Below the pieces are notes generated by a model. The model was not told the origin of the DNA and searched no databases. It worked only from the letters and a program-made list of their open reading frames with translations. A program made the translations under genes and the position numbers. Below are positions 1,412 through 64,000 of a stretch of DNA of 64,000 nt, piece by piece (the stretch's first letter is position 1; each line of letters begins with the position of its first letter). This DNA is from Dictyostelium discoideum (Eukaryota), in contig CM000155.2 in NCBI GenBank assembly GCA_000004695.1, forward strand, positions 3,072,001-3,136,000, in the 5' to 3' direction.

Positions 1412-2014
1412 TTTAAAAAAAAAAAAAACAACATACACTTGAAGCATTAAAAATTTCTAAAACTTGTCTATTTTTAATACCAGGATTCATGAAACCTGCA
1501 GAAATATGTACGAATAAACCCATACGAGCGAATCTACTTCTACCTTCTAAAAGACCACAAAGCTTTGGTGATAATTCGATAGTTTCTTCAGTAATACCTA
1601 AACACATATGACCGGGTTCTAAAATAAATCTTTCACCCTCTTTTAATACTGATAATTCTGAAAAATCTTGGTAATTAATTGATTCTGAAACTATAATGGT
1701 ATCACTATTATCTCTCTTTTTAAACACTCTAAATTCATTACTTAATGTTAAATCAATTGATGCTGCACCAATTGATTTCTCTTCATATCCTGGTGTAATT
1801 TTAATATCACTAATTTTTGTTTTTGTTTTTTTTTTTAAAAAAAATTTAATAACATGTTATTAAAAATAAAATTTATAAAATTAGAAAATTGATTTTTTTT
1901 TTTTTTTTTATTTTTTTATATTTATTTTTATTTTTAATTTTTATTTTTAATTTTAATTTTAGTTATACCCTGATGCTAATGATTTAAGAATTTCGTCTCT
2001 AGATAATACACTCA
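1222..2014 (-). CDS. dcd: dCTP deaminase (bacterial-type Dcd). Three exons on the minus strand: 2014..1968, 1809..1437, 1335..1222. Introns begin GTATAA and GTATGT and end in AG.
   Basis: The spliced protein MSVLSRDEILKSLASG/G-DIKITPGYEEKSIGAASIDLTLSNEFRVFKK...GHMCLGITEETIELSP...GRSRFARMGLFVHISAGFMNPG...EIFNASS/NRLELVPGTKICQFVFMELKGTAVYHGRFENNKL* aligns along its whole length with E. coli Dcd (MRLCDRDIE..., [39 protein letters not shown]). Intron phases are consistent. Confidence 0.8.
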
Positions 2015-2102
2015 TTATTTATATTTATTTTTAGTTTGTTTAGTTTTGTTTTTATTATAAAAAAAAAAATGAATGTATGTTTTATGTTTAATCAAAAAAG
2101 AG

Positions 2103-2135
<33 letters not shown>

Positions 2136-2913
2136 TTTTTAAACCCTTTTTTTTTTTTTAATTTTCTTTTTTTTATTTTAATTTAAATTTTTTTTTTTTT
2201 TAAATTTTTTTTTCATTTTTAATCAAAAACTATCATATGATTTCGAAGCAATGCAATTGCATATTTTCATTTTTTTTAATTTTTTTTTTTTTTTTTTTTT
2301 AATTTTTTTTTTTGGGAACTCATTGCAGAAACTTGTTTTTAAAACGAAACACAAAAAAAATAAAAATAAAAAAACAAAAATAAATAAAAAAAAAAAAAAA
2401 TATTTACGTATTTACAGATGGCACCGCCACTTTAATACCATATCTAGGAATAATAAGGACACATTCCTTCTAACAAATTGCTCAAAATACATTGGGAGGA
2501 ATACATCCACAACCACGACAACCAGTCCAACCAACACCACTACAACATAAAAAAAAAAAAAAAAAAAAATTACATTCACCAAAAAATAAAACTACGATCC
2601 ACACAAAAAGAAAATCTCAATTTTATTATAGTTGTAATGATAAAAAGATTAAGTTAATTTTAAATCTTTAAATCTTTTTTTTTAAAAAATTTTTATAAAT
2701 TTTCCAACTTTTATTTAATTTTTTTTATGAAATTAACTGTTTACAATAAATAAAATAATTTTATTTTTACGTGTTATTCTTGTATTTTTCGCAATTTTCA
2801 AAAAATTTTTATTTTTAATTTTTTTTTTTTTTTTTTAAAATCTAAAATCAAAAAAAGTTACTTATTATTATTATTATTATATTATTATTATTATTATTAT
2901 TATTATTTATTAA

Positions 2914-3657
2914 ATGGAAGATTTTTTCAAAAAAAAAGAACCAATAATAATTGAAGGATTAACAATAATTGAAAATGCAATTGATAAAGAAATGCATGAC
3001 AAACTTTGGAAAGAAGTTAATAAAGAGGAATGGTTAACAGATTTATCAAGAAGAACTCAACATTATGGATATAAATATAATTATAAATCGAGATCATTAA
3101 AAAGTGAAGATATTGCACCACCATTCCCTCAATGGGCATCAGATTTATGTTGTCATTTAATGAAAGAAGGTTTAATAAATGATTTTCCACAACAATTAAT
3201 AGTTAACGAGTATAAAGATGGCCAAGGAATAAGTGCTCATATCGATTCAAAAATATTTGATAATATTATATTCTCAATTTCATTAGGTTCAACATGTAAA
3301 ATGATTTTTAAAAAATCAATTCAACCAACAACAACAACAAAAACAACAACAACAACCTCTGAAAAGGCAGAAGTTTTAAAAGTTGAAAAACAATTAGCAC
3401 CACGTGCATTTCTATTAATAAAAGATGAAGCTAGATTTAATTGGACTCATGAAATACCAAAATTAAAAAAAGGCCAACATCGTATTAGTTTAACTTTTAG
3501 ATTCGTTTCAAAACCACCTTCACCTTTATTAAAATCAAAATTAATTTCTAATAATAAAAATAATGAGATAAAAACTGAAACTACTAAAACAACAACGACA
3601 ACGACAACAACAAAAGAAAAAATAGAAACCAATATTGTTGATGATGATGATGATTGA
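2914..3657 (+). CDS. AlkB-like 2-oxoglutarate/Fe(II)-dependent dioxygenase, single exon, 247 aa.
   Basis: ORF 2914..3657 has the AlkB-family pattern: NEYKDGQGISAHIDS (HxD iron ligands) and GQHRISLTFRFV (2OG-binding RxS). Ser/Thr/Lys-rich low-complexity inserts are present. Confidence 0.7.
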   Translation: MEDFFKKKEPIIIEGLTIIENAIDKEMHDKLWKEVNKEEWLTDLSRRTQHYGYKYNYKSRSLKSEDIAPPFPQWASDLCCHLMKEGLINDFPQQLIVNEYKDGQGISAHIDSKIFDNIIFSISLGSTCKMIFKKSIQPTTTTKTTTTTSEKAEVLKVEKQLAPRAFLLIKDEARFNWTHEIPKLKKGQHRISLTFRFVSKPPSPLLKSKLISNNKNNEIKTETTKTTTTTTTTKEKIETNIVDDDDD

Positions 3658-4224
3658 AAAAAAAAAAAAAAAAAAAAAAATGGAAATAAAATTTATACCA
3701 AAATTCTGGATTCAAACTCAATCAACTATCATTTGAGTTCACTAAAAAAAAAAAAAAAAATTGAAAAATTTTAAAATAAAAAATATTTTTAGAAATCATT
3801 TAAAATAAAAAAAGAGAAAATTGGTGGAGATTTTGATTACATCATTGAAAAAAAAAAATTTCTTGCAGAATGCCAATCGCATCAAAATTTTCCAAAAAGA
3901 TTTTTTTAATTTTTATTTTTTTTAATTTTTATTTTTTTTTTTTCTTTTTTTTTTATTTTTATTTTTTTTTTTTTTATTTTTATTTTTTTTATTTTTTTTT
4001 TTTTGAAAATTCATTCTTTTTATTTTTTTTTTTTTTGGTGTAATGACAATTTCAATAAAACAAATTTAAAAATAAATAATTTTTAATAATATTAATAATA
4101 AATATTTTGTTTAATAATATACCTAAACAAATAAACAAGCACAACTAAGCGGATAATAAAACAAAAACTTAATCTATAAAGTAATAATAATAATAATAAT
4201 AAATTTGTAATTTGAAATAATAAA

Positions 4225-6120
4225 ATGGAAGATATTCAATTTGAAAATGAAGTAGACAATAAAGTATTTGATATTATTGTTGTTGGTGCAGGTGTTGCAG
4301 GTAGTGCATTTGCATATTCATTAGGTAAAGCTGGTAAAAGAGTATTATGTATTGAACGTGATCTCTCTGAACCTGATAGAATCGTTGGTGAATTAATGCA
4401 ACCTGGTGGTGTTAGAGCATTACGTGAATTAGGAATGGAAGGTAATATTATTTTTTTTTGTTTTTTTTATTTTAAATTTTCCCACTTACATTCACACACT
4501 TTAAAAACTAACACATTATAATCTTTTTTTTTTTTTTTATTTATTTCACTTTTTTCACTTTTCTCACCAAAAAAAAAAAAACCCCCTCTCCCACAACAAC
4601 AACATTATCAATGACTTTCACAAAAATAGATTGTTTAGATGGAATTGATTCATCATTAGTATTTGGTTATGGTATATTTAAACATGGTAAAGGTACAAAA
4701 TTATCATATCCAAAAGATTCAAATGGTGCAATTATAAATGGTTTCAGTTTTCATCATGGTCGTTTTATTCAAAAATTAAGATTAAGAGCATCTTCATGTG
4801 AAAAGTATGTATCACTACTTACTACTACAACAACAACTATAGTCATTAAATTTAAAATATTAAATATTAAATATTAAATATAAAAAAAAAAATAAAATAA
4901 AATAAACTTTATTTTTAGTGTTTTTATGGTTGAAGGTACAGTTAATTCATTAATTGAAGAAGATGGTATTATAAAAGGTGTAACATATATAGAAAGTAAA
5001 AAGAAAGATAATAGTAATGAAAATAAAGAAAATAGTGATGATAGTAATAATAATACAGCAACAACAAATAATAATAATAATAATAATAAAGATTTAATTA
5101 AAGAAGTTAGAGCACCATTAACAGTAGTTTGTGATGGTTGTTTCTCAAATTTAAGAAAATCATTAGTACCAGAAAATCAACCACTTTTAACCTCAACATT
5201 TGTAGGTTTAGTTATTAAAGGTGTACAATTACCATTTCAATGTCATGGTCATGTATTTTTAGTAGATCCAGCTCCAATTTTAATGTATAGAGTAAATTTT
5301 AATTTTAATTTTAAAATTTTAATTTATTAATTTTAAATTTTATTAATTTTAATGTTTTTTATTATTTTTTTTTCAGATTGGTTCAGATGAAATTCGTGTT
5401 TTAGTTGATATACCATTTAAATGTCCACCAAATTCAGAATTAAAAGAATATTTAGAGACAGTTACAGCACCACAATTACCAGAGTCATTAAGAGAATCAT
5501 TTTTATATGCATTAAGAAATTCTCCATTGAAAAAGATGCCAAATTCACGTTTACCACCAAATCCAACACCAAAACCAGGTGTTTTAATGATTGGTGATTC
5601 TTGGAATATGAGACATCCATTAACTGGTTCAGGTATGACCGTTTGTTTATCCGATTGTGTTATTCTATCGAAATTAATCACTCAAAGTAATCCATCGATT
5701 AATTTCACCGATAGAGTTTCAATGGAAAGATTAATTCAAAAATTCACAATTCAAAGAAAACCATTAGCATCGACTTTGAATGTTTTAGCTGGTGCACTCT
5801 ATAAAGTTTTCTCTGCATCCAATGAACATCTTAGAAAGGCGTGTTTAGGTTATCTTAGTTTGGGTGGTGAATTCTCTGCTGGCCCAGTGGCTTTGTTATC
5901 TGGTTTGAAACCAAAACCACATATCTTGGCAATGCATTTCTTTGCTGTCGCTTTTTATGGTGTTCTTAAAAATATCTTACCTTTCCCAACTCCTGCTCGT
6001 ATTCGTCGTTGTTATCAAATCTTATGTGCTGCTTCCGATATTGTTGTACCATTGCTCCGTTCTGAAGGTGTTTTAAAATATATTCAAAATATTTGTATTA
6101 TTTTAAGATTAACAAAATAA
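4225..6120 (+). CDS. Squalene monooxygenase (squalene epoxidase). Four exons: 4225..4441, 4630..4804, 4919..5291, 5377..6120 (502 aa).
   Basis: N-terminal FAD fold DIIVVGAGVAGSAFAYSLGKAGKRVLCIERDLSEPDRIVGELMQPGG. Downstream blocks LGMED/CLDGIDS, SFHHGRFIQKLR, APLTVVCDGCFSNLRKSL, PGVLMIGDSWNMRHPLTGSGMTV and LGGEFSAGPVALLSGL are colinear with human SQLE/yeast Erg1. Splice phases traced (1, 2, 0). Confidence 0.85.
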
Positions 6121-6283
6121 AATAATTTAAATAAAAAAATATTTATTTTAAAGAATTAAAAAAAAATAAAGTAATCATTTTTAAAAATAGAATTTTAAAA
6201 TTTTATTGATTCTAAGAAAGTATGCTATTGGAAATAAAAAGAGATGAATGATAATATTTAAAATATTAATAAATTTATTGTTT

Positions 6284-7195
6284 TTCTGAGATTTCAGATT
6301 CATTATCTTTTTCCATTTCAATTTTATTAGGATCATTGAATTTCTTATAATTTCTTCTTTTAATTATTATGATTAAAATGATTGCTAATACTATTAATGA
6401 AAAACCAATTATTGAACATAGAATTGGAATTAAAACATTTAATTTCTTTTCATCTTCTGGTTCTATTGGTTCACCTCCTGTTGCATTAAAACTATAGAAT
6501 TTATGACGAGATGTTGGTTCTTGTATATTAAAATTATAATATTTGATAATTGATCATGATATGTATAATAGTCTCCCCATGGAAAATTTGCATTTATTGT
6601 AGTTTTTTTCTCTGGTTTAAAACTTGAAAAAATAGTAATTCCAACTTCGGGACGATTAAAATATGCAGTCACATTTAAATAATCACTCGAATCCTCTATT
6701 GATATTGATGGATTTTTAATATAAAAACCTGGTTGAAATATATCTGCACCAAATCTCAAATGGATCGCAAATGGTTCATCCTTGAGTGACATTCCTCTTA
6801 CCTAACATGTTGGATAATCTTCAGTATTTCTGTCATAAAACATCATCTAAATAATTTTAAATATAATACACCATTAATATACAAATTGTATAATAAATAA
6901 AATTAAATACTACTCGAATCCAACAAAAAATAAATAAAATTTAATTTTAATCTTTACAGTTTTATTATTTGGAATAAACAATATCTCACTTTGTTGAAGT
7001 GATACCCTCTAAATTCATGAAATATTTTCATTGATTTAGAATTATTTTTAATATCATTTCTTGATATTGAACCTTGCCAATGAAAATCATCTTGAATTTT
7101 ATCTCGATTGAATGATACTGAATAAATGGTTATTGGAGGTGATGTTAATCCTTTTTTAATATATTCACGACCAAAAAGTGGATCTAGTGAATTTA
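6284..7195 (-). CDS. Single-pass membrane protein gene with unresolved structure. At least two exons: about 7195..7017 with a GTGAGA donor, and about 6792..6463. There is a C-terminal TM plus acidic tail segment (6487..6284) in a different frame. A true N-terminus was not found.
   Basis: The minus-strand exon reads SLDPLFGREYIKKGLTSPPITIYSVSFNRDKIQDDFHWQGSISRNDIKNNSKSMKIFHEFRGYHFNK|GTGAGA. The AT-rich intron ends catgttAG. A GC-richer ORF follows (VRGMSLKDEPFAIHLRFGADIFQPGFYIKNPS...YKNQHLVINSIVLMQQEVNQ*). The +1-shifted frame encodes ...FNATGGEPIEPEDEKKLNVLIPILCSIIGFSLIVLAIILIIIIKRRNYKKFNDPNKIEMEKDNESEISEKQ*, a convincing TM plus cytoplasmic tail. Confidence 0.35.
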
Positions 7196-7273
7196 TTATT
7201 TGAATTAAAATTATAATATAAAATATTTATATTTTCATTATTACCAAACAATTTAAAATACCATAATTAATTT

Positions 7274-7313
<40 letters not shown>

Positions 7314-8259
7314 TTAAAGAACAAATAGTTACCAAAAAAAATAAAAAATAAATTATTTTTTATTAAATTTTTTCGTGGTAAATATATACCACTACTCATA
7401 TAAACCAACACCTTATATATATAATGTATGATTAATTTTTTAAACTTACACCTACAATAATTTATAAAAATATTTATCAATTTTTTTTTTTTTTGAGGGA
7501 CGGCGAACTTTGATTATTATTATTATTATTAGGATTATTATTATTATTATTCATGAATCGCATATCAACCAAAGTGAATTTATAAATTTTTGTCCATTAA
7601 TTTTGGCTTTTGGATTGTTGAGACATAATAAAAAAAAAAAAAATTGACGAAAATAACCACAACACCACCATAATTACAAAACAAACAAATAAAAAAATAA
7701 AAAATAATAAAAAGAAATTATATTTATAAAATATTAATAAATTAACTGTTTATTTGAGATTTTAGATTTAGATTCATTATTTTGTTTTTCATTTAATATT
7801 ATTAGAATCACCAAAATGCAACGTTGAAAAGGGATAAAAATTCAAAGAAGAAGTGAATATTTCACATTTTTTTATTTTATTTTATTTTATTTTTTTTTTT
7901 ATTTAAAATTTCAAAATGAAAATAAAAAAAAAATAAAAAAAAAAAAAGTGTAAAGTCAGAAAATTAAAGTTATAACCTCGATTAATTTGAACTATTTATA
8001 AACATCTATTTTTATTTTTCATTTTTAAATTTATTTTTAAATTTATTTTTTTCTTTTATTTTTTATATTTTTTTTATATTTTATTTTATTTTTTTATAAA
8101 AAAAAAAAAAAAAAATAACCCACACACATACCAAAAAAAGGTTTAAATTTTTTATTTTAAATAATAGCAACCTCTATCACACATAAATTTACACATACAC
8201 ATTTACATATAAATAAACTTTCAACACACACGCATATATATATATATAATAACTAAAAA

Positions 8260-8990
8260 ATGAAGTTAGTTGCTATGGTATTAGCAAAAAGAAAAGGGGA
8301 TTTATTAGAAATTGCCTGTGATTTATCACAATTTGGTTTCTTTGAAAAGGGAACGTATGTATCAATTAAAAACATAAATTGAAATTGAAATAGAAATAGA
8401 AATAGATATTAAACATTTATTTAGTGTTAAAGAAGTAATAATAGCAGCAAGTAAAATTTTTATAAATAAATTCGATCCAAACACAAGACATTCAGTACCA
8501 TATGAAGATTATATCTGTTTTATAGATGTTAGAGCTGAATTTGGGTAACTATTTTATTATTTATTTATTGTTTATTATTTATTATTTATTATTTATTGTT
8601 TATAATATTAATATTAATTATGAAAAAAAAAAAAAAAAAAGTGGTGTTGTATTTACAGATAAAGAATATCCAGAAAGAGTAGCAGCAAGATTATTATCGG
8701 AAATGATGAATGGTTATGTAAAGAAAACTCAAGGTATTATTGGTGCACCATATCCAGAATTACAAGGTATATTTAAAAATTCGGATCCAAAAGCAAATGA
8801 TAAAATTTTAGAAGTTCAAAATCAAGTGAATGAAGTCACTTCAATTATGCATAAAAATATTGATGTTGCTTTAGGTAATACTGAAAAAATGGAGACCCTA
8901 TTAGAAACTTCTGATGATTTAAGCACAAGAAGTAAATTATTTTTAAAACAAGCTAAAAAAGCAAATAGAAGATGTTGTATTATTCAATAA
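8260..8990 (+). CDS. ykt6: Ykt6-type R-SNARE (longin domain, SNARE motif, C-terminal CCIIQ prenylation/acylation box). Three exons: 8260..8354, 8425..8544, 8642..8990.
   Basis: MKLVAMVLAKRKGDLLEIACDLSQFGFFEKGT / VKEVIIAASKIFINKFDPNTRHSVPYEDYICFIDVRAEFG / GVVFTDKEYPERVAARLLSEMMNGYVKK...KILEVQNQVNEVTSIMHKNIDVALGNTEKMETLLETSDDLSTRSKLFLKQAKKANRRCCIIQ* is colinear with Ykt6 (VVIADNEYPSRVAFTLLEKV..., ...QNSCCAIM). GTATGT/GTAACT donors; phases consistent. Confidence 0.85.
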
Positions 8991-41520: not shown

Positions 41521-46191
<4,671 letters not shown>

Positions 46192-60338: not shown

Positions 60339-60411
60339 GGGGATGTAGCTCAGATGGTAGAGCGCTCGCTTAGCATGCGAGAGGTAAAGGGATCGATACC
60401 CTTCTTCTCCA
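60339..60411 (+). tRNA. tRNA-Ala, anticodon AGC.
   Basis: GGGGATGTAGCTCAGATGGTAGAGCGCTCGCTTAGCATGCGAGAGGTAAAGGGATCGATACCCTTCTTCTCCA. Cloverleaf with anticodon loop cTTAGCAt. Acceptor stem includes the G3:U70 alanine identity pair. T-loop TCGATAC. Confidence 0.9.
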
Positions 60412-60866
60412 CTTTATAATTTATTGTGTAAAGTGATACTTTACGAAGTTCGGGTTTGGAAATCGAAAATAAAAATTAAAAAAATAATAAAAATAAAATA
60501 AAAACATTTTTCGTTTTTCGAAAAATTCAGTTTTTCACTTTGAATACAAATAACAATATTAGTATTATTTATTAATTTGAATTTCTAAACATCTATTTAA
60601 TTTATACATATTTATCTATAAATTTAACAATTGTATGGAATCTTAATATTATTAATTGTCACGACTTTCAGTTTTATATTTATTAGTATTACCATTACAA
60701 GTTTTTAATAGTCATAATATTAATAAGAATACTATAATAATACTTCTTATTTTAACTCATTATTTAATAATACTATTAACAATTATTTATTTAACAGATT
60801 TTCAAGATTTGTTTGAAAATTCCTAAATTGGAATTTTCAAAATAAAAATTTAGATATTAATTTTAA

Positions 60867-60905
<39 letters not shown>

Positions 60906-61758
60906 ATTTTTTTGCAGATCTTAATAAAATTAAGATTAACAGAGACGTTGCAAGACTAAAGAATGAGGAATAAAAAAAGATATAAATAGTGGGATATTTT
61001 AAAAGGACCACAGATTTTATTATCAATTTTTAACCATTTATTACATTTTAATTTAATATTACACAATAAATATATACATAAACAAATTATATTAATTTAG
61101 GTAAATACATAATAAAATAATAAATTATATAAACGTTATCAAAATTATTACTTAAAATAAATAAATAATTTAAAAATGAGTGAACCAGGAAATATCACAA
61201 CTAAAAGACAGCTTCAACAACAATTAAATGAAAGAATTACAGAAGAAATAAACAAGATAAACCAGCGGAAGATCTTTACATATATTTATATATTTATTTT
61301 TATATATATTTATTTATATATTTATATTTATTTATAAAAATATATTTAATTATATATTTATTTATATATTTATATATTTTTATATTTTTATATATTTTTA
61401 TATATTTATATTTATATTGCATTACATGTTAAATTTATAACAAAGTAGTTTGGTTAATTATATAGATGTTTAAAAATAATAAATCAAATAATACCAATGT
61501 TTTGTTTTTTTATTTTTTATTTTTTTATTTTTATTTTTATTTTTTATAAACTGAATTGGTAAAATACCAATGTATTTCACATTTATTAGTTTGTAAAATA
61601 CTTTGGTATTTTACGAAGTTTAGTTTATATGATTTTTTAAAAAAAGAAAATTTAAAAATTTTTTTTTTTTTCGAAAATGAAAATGATTTTTTGAAAAAAG
61701 AAAATTTAAAAATTTTGGAATTGAAAATGTGGTATATTTTTCAAAGAATTTCAAGAAA

Positions 61759-61831
61759 GCTCGATTAGCTCAGTCGGCAGAGCGTGGTGCTAATAACGCC
61801 ACGGTCGCAGGTTCGATCCCTGCATCGAGCA
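61759..61831 (+). tRNA. tRNA-Ile, anticodon AAT.
   Basis: GCTCGATTAGCTCAGTCGGCAGAGCGTGGTGCTAATAACGCCACGGTCGCAGGTTCGATCCCTGCATCGAGCA. Acceptor stem GCTCGAT/ATCGAGC. Anticodon stem TGGTG/CGCCA with loop CTAATAA. T-arm GCAGGTTCGATCCCTGC. Confidence 0.9.
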
Positions 61832-61854
61832 AGTATTTTTATACAACCCAAAAT

Positions 61855-61876
61855 GGTCGTTGGTTCGATTCCTTCC
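61855..61876 (+). promoter_or_regulatory. External B box (ex-B box), a duplicated Pol III B-box element about 30 bp downstream of tRNA-Ile.
   Basis: ggtcgttGGTTCGATTCCttcc matches the B-box consensus GGTTCGAnTCC outside the tRNA body. This is an arrangement characteristic of Dictyostelium tRNA genes (a weaker possible copy AGTTCGGGTTTGG lies 30 bp after tRNA-Ala at about 60438). Confidence 0.55.
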
Positions 61877-61899
61877 TAATCAACTGACCACTTAATTGA

Positions 61900-62515
61900 A
61901 ATTCATAAATAAAACTATTAATTATTGTTTATTTGTTATAAATGATCTTTTTTCATGTTGAAAGACCCACATATACACAAAACAGAATTTCAAAAAGATC
62001 TATTCTTTAAAGGATATAGTTACAATCAATTATTCCCAAACATATTGAAGATAAGAGATACGAAAACCAAAAACACAATGTTCAGATTTCATTCAAGATG
62101 TTTACCTCTAAATTATCTTCACAATAAAGATTGTCCATTGTGTAATATGAATATGAAAAATGATCCATATAGATCACCTATAATACCTTCTAACATGTAA
62201 AAAGATCATGACATAAACATAGACTACATTCATTCAAAATTTTGAATGGTGCTACAAAGCTATAGATTATGACCTCTCTAGACATTTTCATATAAAAATA
62301 TAATAGCACTGATATTACACCAAATTTGGATATGGATTTGCAATCAAATATACAGCGAAGACAAAACTTTAAACTATCATCATCAAAAGACTCACTTTCA
62401 ATCTGTAATAAAAACGAATACATAAATCAAATTAAAAATATCAAAAAACAAATAATCAAAGAATACTGTATACCAATCATAGCCCTACCAAATAGAGAAA
62501 TTTTTGACCAATTTC

Positions 62516-62545
<30 letters not shown>
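61900..62545 (+). mobile_element. 5'-truncated, degenerate non-LTR retrotransposon remnant (TRE3-like position, about 70 bp downstream of tRNA-Ile). It ends in a 25-nt poly(A).
   Basis: Two short out-of-frame ORF fragments (61955..62200, containing a CPLC...Cys/His knuckle-like end: HNKDCPLCNMNMKNDPYRSP; and 62326..62520). These are followed directly by a pure A25 tract at 62521..62545, in otherwise non-homopolymeric GC-normal sequence. The location just 3' of a tRNA gene and its ex-B box is the typical target of Dictyostelium tRNA-targeted retroelements. Confidence 0.4.
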
Positions 62546-62549
<4 letters not shown>

Positions 62550-62999
62550 AAATACAACAATATAACCAATTATTACTATTCAAATAATTAAAATAAAATA
62601 AAATAAACATTATTATTATTTATTTGTTTATTATTATAATTATCTTAAATGAAGACAATTTAGCAATGGAGAGATGAAACTATCTCGAAAACAAGGATTT
62701 TAAGTATCTCTATAGAGAATTAATAGTTTTATCTGTTTCGCAATTTTAATCCTTGTCGACTAATATTAATATTTAATTATTCCTAATTCTATTTAATTGT
62801 ATTTCTAATTTTTTCATTTTTTGTATTTTTTACTTCTAAAATATATAAATTAAATCATTTTTTTATTTTTAAAAAATATTTTTTATATTTATAATCTATT
62901 TTGAATTTTATTTTTTTAAAAAATGAATAAATAAGGAGATGTTCTATTTTTATTTTGTAATCATTTTGATTAATTAATTTTTAATTTTAAAAAATAATT

Positions 63000-63042
<43 letters not shown>

Positions 63043-63283: not shown

Positions 63284-64000
63284 ATGGTCAACATCTTCCT
63301 AATCATTGTTGCGGTTGTTATACCAGCACTTGTAGCTTTAGGAAGTTTGTATTTAATTGCATACTTTCAACATCCTGACGATAAAAATGTTGCCTATTTC
63401 CCGAAGATTATTGTTATTTTAGGTATTACTTTAGCAGCAACAAGTATATTAATGTTACCATTGGATGTAGCAAATCAAGGAGGAAAAGGCGGATTTCCAA
63501 TGGATATATTATGGATTGTTATATATATAGTAGTTGCAGTATTTGCAATTGTTATATGCCCATTTGCAATGTTCTTTTATGAATCAGAAGAAGCAGATCC
63601 AGCAGCAGGTAGTCAAATTGCAGGTGCATTCAAAGGTACATTTGCAATTCTTTTTGCATTTGCAGCATTAACTATTGTTTTATATGTATTCTTTGGAGTT
63701 GCAGAGATACCAACCATAGTGATTTTAAGTAGATTCCAAATTATTAATTATCCAATAGCAACTGATAGTATTAATATAACAACAACATTACCAGAGATAG
63801 CGTCAATCGTTGGTGGAGGGAATGATAAAATTAAATTGGATCCTGGAAATCCAGAATTATTAGGTAATGGCTCTGAATATGTAGAGTATCGTTTAGATAA
63901 AGAGTTTTTACAATTCCGTGTATCAATTGCACTTTTCATTATTACTATGGTTGCTTTCTTTGGTTGGTTATTATTCATTATTTTCGGTGGTATTGGTTTG
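63284..64000 (+). CDS. LMBR1-domain multi-pass membrane protein, 5' part (N-terminal about 239 aa; continues beyond the window).
   Basis: ATG at 63284. [67 protein letters not shown]...[29 protein letters not shown]... is typical of the LMBR1/LMBD N-terminus (alternating TM helices, YFQHPDD loop). Open frame to the window end. Confidence 0.6.

Follow-up and report, generated by a model that had tools for sequence, protein, structure and literature searches.

A probable decayed, 5'-truncated TRE3-type retrotransposon downstream of a tRNA-Ile gene in Dictyostelium discoideum

TREs occupy 61% of the tRNA genes of Dictyostelium discoideum, and the distances reported for these retrotransposons behind tRNA genes range from 14 to 305 bp (PMC5006619). 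Elements of the TRE3 type lie 40-150 bp downstream of a tRNA gene and share its orientation, with the internal or the external B box as the target (PMC5911963); the external B box (ex-B), targeted by TRE3, is present at approximately 80% of D. discoideum tRNA genes (PMC5911963). TRE5 elements are found about 50 bp upstream of tRNA genes and in the opposite orientation (PMC5911963, PMC5006619), and the TREs of D. purpureum are TRE3-like only (PMC5006619). The ex-B, the location of TRE3 elements behind tRNA genes and the occurrence of dead, 5'-truncated copies are all well-documented, known biology in D. discoideum. Investigation of a 64,000-nt stretch of the D. discoideum genome (assembly GCA_000004695.1, contig CM000155.2, forward-strand positions 3,072,001-3,136,000; hereafter the window, whose own numbering is used throughout) points, on the basis of homology and position, to a further element of this kind: the segment at 61961-62546 appears to be the decayed remnant of a 5'-truncated TRE3-type element that integrated downstream of a tRNA-Ile(AAT) gene in the same orientation, a reading to which a probability of about 0.9 is attached.

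A preliminary description, made from the letters of the window, had noted a segment of normal GC content with fragmented open reading frames (ORFs) starting about 70 bp past the tRNA gene. The segment was recovered (GC content of 25.6% in 61900-62520, compared with 12.7-14.5% in the flanks), its start being placed further downstream, where homology to the second ORF (ORF2) of retroelements sets in at 61961, 129 nt past the tRNA gene. The 84-aa open frame at 61946-62197 was used as the query in an exhaustive HMMER search (phmmer) of 1.84 billion representative proteins and gave 17 protein matches with E-values down to 3.8e-28; a word-indexed protein search with the same frame recovered the gene model of its own locus alone, and the relatives came to light only in the exhaustive HMMER search. 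The source was looked up for 11 of the 17 matches, all of which derived from Dictyostelium genomes (D. discoideum, D. cf. discoideum, D. citrinum, and D. purpureum) or from JGI metagenome contigs, and the record names of the homologues looked up were "hypothetical protein" or equally uninformative. The domain content of longer relatives is more telling: protein P0004 (1189 aa) has the Pfam domains Exo_endo_phos (APE) and RVT_1, with the 84-aa fragment aligning to its residues 936-1009, and in P0006 and P0003 the RVT_1 domain likewise lies upstream of the aligned region. Because the aligned region follows the reverse transcriptase (RT) domain in these three proteins, the remnant is the C-terminal, post-RT part of the ORF2 of a non-long-terminal-repeat (non-LTR) retrotransposon.

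At the nucleotide level, positions 61961-62520 (+) are collinear with positions 6720-7518 of L002, a degenerate element of 4.6 kb downstream of a tRNA-Val gene in D. cf. discoideum, in three blocks with identities of 82.5%, 75.7%, and 78.3% (blastn, tblastx), and the collinearity stops at the shared ORF2 stop codon. The lack of any similarity to a retroelement ORF2, which the preliminary description had named as the outcome that would count against it, was thus looked for, and the opposite was found both in the 17 proteins and in the alignment to L002 through that stop codon. The first block (61961-62174, +), supported by blastn (82.5% identity to L002 6717-6937), tblastx, and phmmer, comprises ORF2 before the zinc finger together with the CX2C half of that motif, and is open in the frame of 61946-62197. 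The second block (62175-62362, +), defined by alignment, blastn, and tblastx, comprises ORF2 after the zinc finger and is interrupted by frameshifts and stop codons. The third (62363-62520, +) comprises the C-terminal end of ORF2 (...YCIPIIALPNREIFDQFL, then stop), as indicated by the alignment and by tblastn of a 64-aa C-terminal ORF, which matches L002, L008, L009, and L003. This block ends in ...LPNREIFDQFL-TAA, with the TAA stop codon at 62518-62520, and the corresponding ORF2 ends in the relatives, each followed by a stop, are ...LPNRVIVDQFI (P0002), ...LPNLISFDQFI (P0003), and ...LPNINSLEYFL (P0005). The fragmented ORFs of the preliminary description are therefore, as judged from these alignments, decayed ORF2 coding sequence throughout.

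The protein alignment contains the conserved block ...RNTMFRFHARCLP[IL]N.LHNK.C.[LI]CN..M.NDPYGHLFF.C..., a zinc finger of the form CX2CX10HX4C. The window retains CPLC (62132-62143) and ...NDPY, after which the similarity breaks off at the junction 62174/62175, where the G-H-LFFx-C half of the motif has been lost through a deletion of approximately 140 bp. A Cys/His knuckle-like motif had been reported as the C-terminus of the fragmented ORFs; its CX2C half is present, its H-X4-C half is deleted, and the motif is not the C-terminus, the true ORF2 C-terminus lying at 62326-62520 in a frame other than that of CX2C. A second deletion, of approximately 82-85 bp relative to the related elements, is located at 62362/62363. 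With its stop codons, frameshifts, and these two internal deletions, and with a remaining length of 560 bp plus an A28 tail, the remnant is a dead copy without present function.

The homology sets in abruptly at 61961 (tblastx), a position that is taken, from the alignment, as the 5' truncation point of the element. Between the AT-rich flank and this first homologous base there are 23 nt (61938-61960, +), delimited by repeat search and alignment, which may represent extra nucleotides added at the 5' junction by template switching or may be there by chance; they do not stand out beyond chance. At the same junction, 61942-61964 has an inverted match of 20/23 nt to 62187-62209, the latter falling just past the deletion of approximately 140 bp. 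A 5' inversion by twin priming was considered for this pair and rejected for lack of support, since the piece that is inverted falls within the retained segment instead of upstream of it, and matches of such size are not rare in AT-rich DNA.

Regarding the tRNA gene behind which the remnant lies, the tRNA-Ile (anticodon AAT) of the preliminary description was confirmed at 61759-61831 (+) by ARAGORN and by Rfam (RF00005, 64.1 bits). Its internal B box, GGTTCGATCCC, is located at 61810-61820 (+) by pattern, and a T5 run at 61836-61840 (+), read from the sequence, is probably its RNA polymerase III (Pol III) terminator, as would be expected from general Pol III biology. A perfect additional B box had been reported about 24 bp past the tRNA gene; the motif, GGTTCGATTCC, is present at 61862-61872 (+) as the sole exact match in the window, at a corrected distance of 30 nt from the end of the tRNA gene to its start (52 nt from start to start relative to the internal B box). 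Allowing no more than one mismatch to GGTTCGATTCC, there are two matches in the 64 kb, the ex-B and the internal B box, compared with 0.16 expected, and the likeness of the ex-B to the T-arm region of the tRNA-Ile gene reaches 16/19 nt. GGTTCGATTCC thus has the features by which an ex-B is recognised in Dictyostelium, namely a near-perfect copy of the B box a few tens of nucleotides past the tRNA gene.

The distance from the end of the tRNA-Ile gene to the first homologous base of the remnant is 129 nt, both being on the + strand, and the junction lies 99 nt past the start of the ex-B; either of the two boxes, ex-B or internal, may have been used. The loci of the homologues were fetched and scanned for tRNA genes, and five related loci in three species have a same-strand tRNA gene 53-201 nt upstream of the 5' junction of the element. 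These are L003 (D. cf. discoideum, tRNA-Pro, 53 nt from tRNA end to element), L007 (D. purpureum, tRNA-Ala, 99 nt), L009 (D. cf. discoideum, tRNA-Ala, 99 nt), L002 (D. cf. discoideum, tRNA-Val, 156 nt), and L008 (D. discoideum, tRNA-Ser, 201 nt). In L006 (D. discoideum), a tRNA-Val gene is followed by tandem elements, and among these loci of homologues L005 alone had no tRNA gene within the DNA fetched. The assignment to TRE3 is supported by this downstream, same-strand geometry in the window and in the relatives, by the lack of likeness to TRE5 (the fragment had no similarity to the intact, TRE5-positioned element of L008, E > 0.7), and by the matches in D. purpureum, where P0005 and P0006 are 59% identical to the fragment. 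The domains of a TRE3 ORF2 are represented through the homologues (Exo_endo_phos, RVT_1), the remnant itself keeping half of CX2CX10HX4C. As a whole, the interpretation first put forward from the letters, that of a 5'-truncated, tRNA-targeted non-LTR element downstream of a tRNA gene, is borne out by the ORF2 homology and the TRE3 geometry.

Regarding the 3' end, the preliminary description had the element end abruptly in A25 (62521-62545); an A run is present, its size and coordinates being A28 at 62519-62546 (+), where it overlaps the ORF2 stop, the first two A's belonging to the TAA codon. There are approximately 110 A or T runs of at least 15 nt in the window and A28 by itself is uninformative, in keeping with the caution that the tract might be an ordinary intergenic homopolymer, but the run becomes informative because its start coincides exactly with the end of the ORF2 homology. 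It is presumed to be the poly(A) tail of the retrotransposon and, we infer, the original one, and 62546 is taken with moderate confidence as the 3' boundary of the element.

The history of the locus was addressed by comparing the syntenic intergenic regions between the WD40 and LMBR1 genes of D. cf. discoideum (L009), D. citrinum (L010), and D. purpureum (L011). A tRNA-Ala(AGC) gene is conserved at the locus (60339-60412 in the window, 4196-4268 in L009, and 5070-5142 in L010), and among the syntenic loci compared the tRNA-Ile(AAT) gene is found in D. discoideum only. In D. cf. discoideum the tRNA-Ala gene is followed, 99 nt on, by a remnant of the same subgroup as that of the window; D. citrinum has the tRNA-Ala gene only, and in the syntenic region of D. 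purpureum there is no tRNA gene. An empty site was sought in the three syntenic loci and none could be defined, since none carries the tRNA-Ile gene. The remnants of the window and of L009 may be orthologous or may be independent insertions, and the main conclusion is unaffected either way.

Several of these results weigh against a simple TRE3 insertion ending at 62546. The related elements L002, L008, and L009 have a 3' untranslated region (UTR) of 70-80 nt between stop codon and poly(A), no counterpart of which was detectable in the window by similarity tests using AT-rich real sequence as the null, and without it A28 could be an ordinary or an expanded homopolymer. A target-site duplication (TSD) flanking the element, which the preliminary description had proposed to look for, was not found next to the junctions (p = 0.59), and no convincing one was found for the element. 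Given the absence of the tRNA-Ile gene from the syntenic regions of D. cf. discoideum and D. citrinum, the remnant could have arrived with a rearranged segment instead of inserting in situ. The TRE3 label, furthermore, rests on the geometry and on relatives that share it.

Some of these points are accommodated by placing the 3' boundary elsewhere: A28 would be the A-rich start of the 3' UTR expanded by slippage, given that the relatives read TAA AAATAAAAAAC... after the ORF2 stop, and the element would extend to a decayed, A-rich tail near 62611, enclosed by the copies ATTATTGTTTATTTGTT (61921-61937) and ATTATTATTTATTTGTT (62612-62628) of a 17-nt TSD. These copies form a direct repeat of 16/17 nt, 23 nt outside the limit of homology on the 5' side and 65 nt outside it on the 3' side, which exceeds all 300 of 300 mononucleotide shuffles; compared with pairs of real AT-rich sequence its p-value is approximately 0.04. 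Similarly, the first half of the L008 3' UTR aligns to 62582-62618, within the top 0.7% of window chunks, but p is 0.08-0.13 against AT-rich real-sequence chunks, no alignment beyond A28 was found for the second half, and the UTR match shares positions with the proposed TSD. This placement is considered unlikely, although of the alternatives it is the one to be taken most seriously. Improbable by comparison is a history in which the tRNA-Ile gene, the ex-B, and the remnant arrived together by segmental rearrangement or duplication, or in which the remnant is the ancestral one, found behind the tRNA-Ala gene in the sister species, and was rearranged afterwards. The distribution of tRNA genes in D. 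cf. discoideum and D. citrinum is compatible with it, as are the 77.6% identity between the window and L009 remnants, which equals that of orthologous intergenic DNA (77%), and their weak pairing in a neighbor-joining (NJ) tree. However, the 5' truncation points of the two remnants differ, as do their deletions, with the 3' UTR in L009 only, the window remnant has a slightly higher identity to the non-syntenic L002 (79.6%), and the flanks from the tRNA-Ala gene to 62980 have no significant alignment with the syntenic loci, permissive blastn yielding AT-rich noise; the distance and orientation of the remnant relative to the tRNA-Ile gene and the ex-B are, moreover, exactly as insertion of a TRE3 in situ predicts.

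Readings that dispense with a TRE3 element fare worse still. An NCBI gene model, ACTFIT_012363 (P0001, 110 aa, "hypothetical protein"), exists in assembly GCA_054883475.1, where the same locus (L001) is 100% identical over 61832-62518; the model covers window positions 62078-62520 (L001 10001-10443) and could be seen as a real host protein-coding gene. It requires an intron that skips stops and frameshifts in sequence collinear with a retroelement ORF2, and its cluster holds no D. discoideum protein, of whatever assembly, other than the model itself, so that a host gene is extremely improbable, and ACTFIT_012363 is very likely a false gene call spliced from ORF2 fragments of a dead element. 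A functional RNA or DNA hairpin beyond the A run is given no better chance. The 9-bp inverted repeat reported at 62693-62756 is present, with arms at 62691-62699 and 62748-62756, and can be extended to about 13 bp with a bulge; the proposed stem-loop did not hold up as a feature, the RNA fold of 62685-62765 having -14.4 kcal/mol and a z-score of -1.76, with 11 of 200 shuffles folding equally well (z-score of -1.43 for the opposite strand). Inverted repeats of this kind (9 bp, at least three G/C, loop of up to 60 nt) number five in the window compared with 3.8 +/- 2.2 when the window is locally shuffled, and for 62691-62756 no Rfam match and no homologue in related or syntenic loci were found. 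The inverted repeat is a chance feature and not part of the element. Just as far-fetched is a remnant of another element class located near the tRNA gene by coincidence. TRE5, NLTR, and Skipper-2 (DGLT-P) elements likewise reside next to dictyostelid tRNA genes (PMC5006619), but the remnant is not in the upstream, opposite TRE5 position and, as noted above, shows no similarity to the TRE5-positioned element of L008; both NLTR-A and NLTR-B possess an RNase H domain instead of a zinc finger and are reported for D. purpureum and P. pallidum (PMC5911963, PMC5006619); and Skipper-2, an LTR element with RT, RNase H, integrase, and chromodomain, lies 8-23 bp downstream and lacks poly(A), in contrast to the APE, RT, and poly(A) of the relatives here and to the distance of 129 nt in the window.

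Within the TRE3 type, the subfamily was considered using a pairwise identity matrix and an NJ tree over the homologous 3' region. The window remnant forms a subgroup with L002, L008, and L009 (73-80% nucleotide identity), to which L003 and L006a are more distant (64-67%) and to which a young D. discoideum family, L005 and L006b (98.6% mutual identity), has 56% identity. All copies of the window subgroup that were seen are degenerate. The window and L008 remnants, 77% identical, are both short degenerate 3' fragments, located 129 and 201 nt behind their tRNA genes. TRE3-D is known from a partial consensus of 1559 bp and from 11 copies, which lie 49-285 bp downstream of tRNA genes and include no full-length one (PMC5006619), and the window subgroup resembles it in being degenerate throughout, in consisting of short 3' fragments in D. 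discoideum, and in being distinct from L005/L006b and L006a. By elimination and description only, the odds that the window copy is TRE3-D are put at roughly even; TRE3-C or an unnamed old lineage is possible. With the subgroup members of the sister species, it could become easier to estimate the age of the family and to rebuild a consensus longer than the published partial TRE3-D.

The following sequence of events would account for the homology, truncation, decay, and geometry found in the window, with the targeting and target-primed reverse transcription steps taken by inference from the literature on TREs and long interspersed nuclear elements (LINEs). The integration machinery would have recognised the Pol III complex on the tRNA gene (TFIIIC/TFIIIB, B box or ex-B), and the APE endonuclease of ORF2 would have introduced a nick some 100 bp downstream from the ex-B. 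Target-primed reverse transcription would then have been primed from the poly(A) end of the element RNA and have stopped early, with the last 0.8 kb or so of ORF2 copied. The copy would have been dead on arrival, and the substitutions, stop codons, frameshifts, and deletions of approximately 140 and 82 bp would have come later.

Being of a type that is routine for the genome of D. discoideum, the remnant matters little beyond its correct annotation, and ACTFIT_012363 deserves to be flagged as transposon-derived. A broader idea, that Dictyostelium tRNA genes can relocate together with attached TRE3 copies, is regarded as very improbable; the route could be ectopic recombination of one TRE3 remnant with another or the retrotransposition of a tRNA-TRE3 read-through transcript, and such relocation, if true, would make TRE3 elements agents of tRNA-gene turnover instead of passive passengers.

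Other features were observed around the tRNA-Ile gene. A near-perfect palindrome of about 86 nt (61545-61630) lies 130-215 bp upstream of the gene, with a DNA fold of -19.3 kcal/mol (z = -7.86, none of 200 shuffles as good), and is far more significant than the hairpin at 62691-62756. Neither an Rfam match nor a copy in the fetched loci was found for it, and it could represent the end of a transposon, a locus of hairpin RNA, or a product of replication slippage. Next to it, a direct repeat of 34 nt (33/34 identical) is present at 61629-61662 and 61683-61716 with a spacing of 54 bp, its second copy ending 42 bp upstream of the tRNA-Ile gene, near the usual position of TRE5 integration. No TRE5 sequence was detectable between or beside the two copies, and a search for a TRE5 remnant upstream of the tRNA-Ile gene found no similarity to the TRE5-positioned element of L008. 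The sequence TACTTTACGAAGTT (60437-60451), about 25 nt downstream of the tRNA-Ala gene, resembles TATTTTACGAAGTT (61609-61622) in the right arm of the palindrome, a likeness that may reflect a short dispersed repeat or chance. On the downstream side, the LMBR1-family gene starts at 63286 and has a product with 100% identity to a protein of D. discoideum AX4 (P0031), and an A37 run (63004-63040) followed by CCCCACACCCC is located about 245 bp upstream of the start codon of this gene; many long homopolymers are present in the window, the longest being T99 at 45322-45420.

Related loci also have features of their own. Both sides of the tRNA-Ser(AGA) gene of L008 in D. discoideum are occupied (2000-7600, minus strand, and 7896-8676): upstream, in the TRE5 position and the opposite orientation, there is an apparently intact element with an ORF2 of 1001 aa and an ORF1 of 421 aa, and downstream there is a degenerate remnant of the window subgroup with a 3' UTR and A23. 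The 4.6-kb element of L002 has an internal inversion (5400-5618) relative to L003, L004, L006, and L007. Very short tandem tails with poly(A) are found beside a longer copy in L002 (2985-3010) and L003 (8017-8150); the tail in L003 is about 100 nt long, and the piece in L002 is short and ends in A26, its origin as an element tail being presumptive. Such tandem tails are consistent with repeated targeting of one tRNA gene.

Compared with described systems, the remnant resembles the dead-on-arrival copies of LINEs, such as mammalian L1, in keeping its 3' end with poly(A) and in decaying by point mutations and deletions; unlike those copies, which lie at dispersed AT-rich sites, it belongs to elements that are site-specific next to Pol III genes. 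Skipper-2 shares the location downstream of dictyostelid tRNA genes, but is an LTR retrotransposon of the Ty3-gypsy type with integrase and chromodomain, inserted much closer to the tRNA gene in D. discoideum. The TRE5 family (TRE5-A/DRE, TRE5-B, and TRE5-C) is nearer in kind, comprising non-LTR elements with APE, RT, and a zinc finger in ORF2 that also target tRNA genes; its members differ in being inserted upstream and in the opposite orientation, where the window element is downstream and in the same orientation. The closest described system is the TRE3 family (TRE3-A/Tdd-3, TRE3-B, TRE3-C, and TRE3-D). The window copy differs from the family in having 560 bp left, two internal deletions, and no recognisable 3' UTR or TSD; it agrees with it in lying downstream of a tRNA gene and sharing its orientation, in the zinc-finger motif of ORF2, in its 5' truncation and presumed A-rich 3' tail, and in its APE- and RT-encoding relatives behind tRNA genes in three species.

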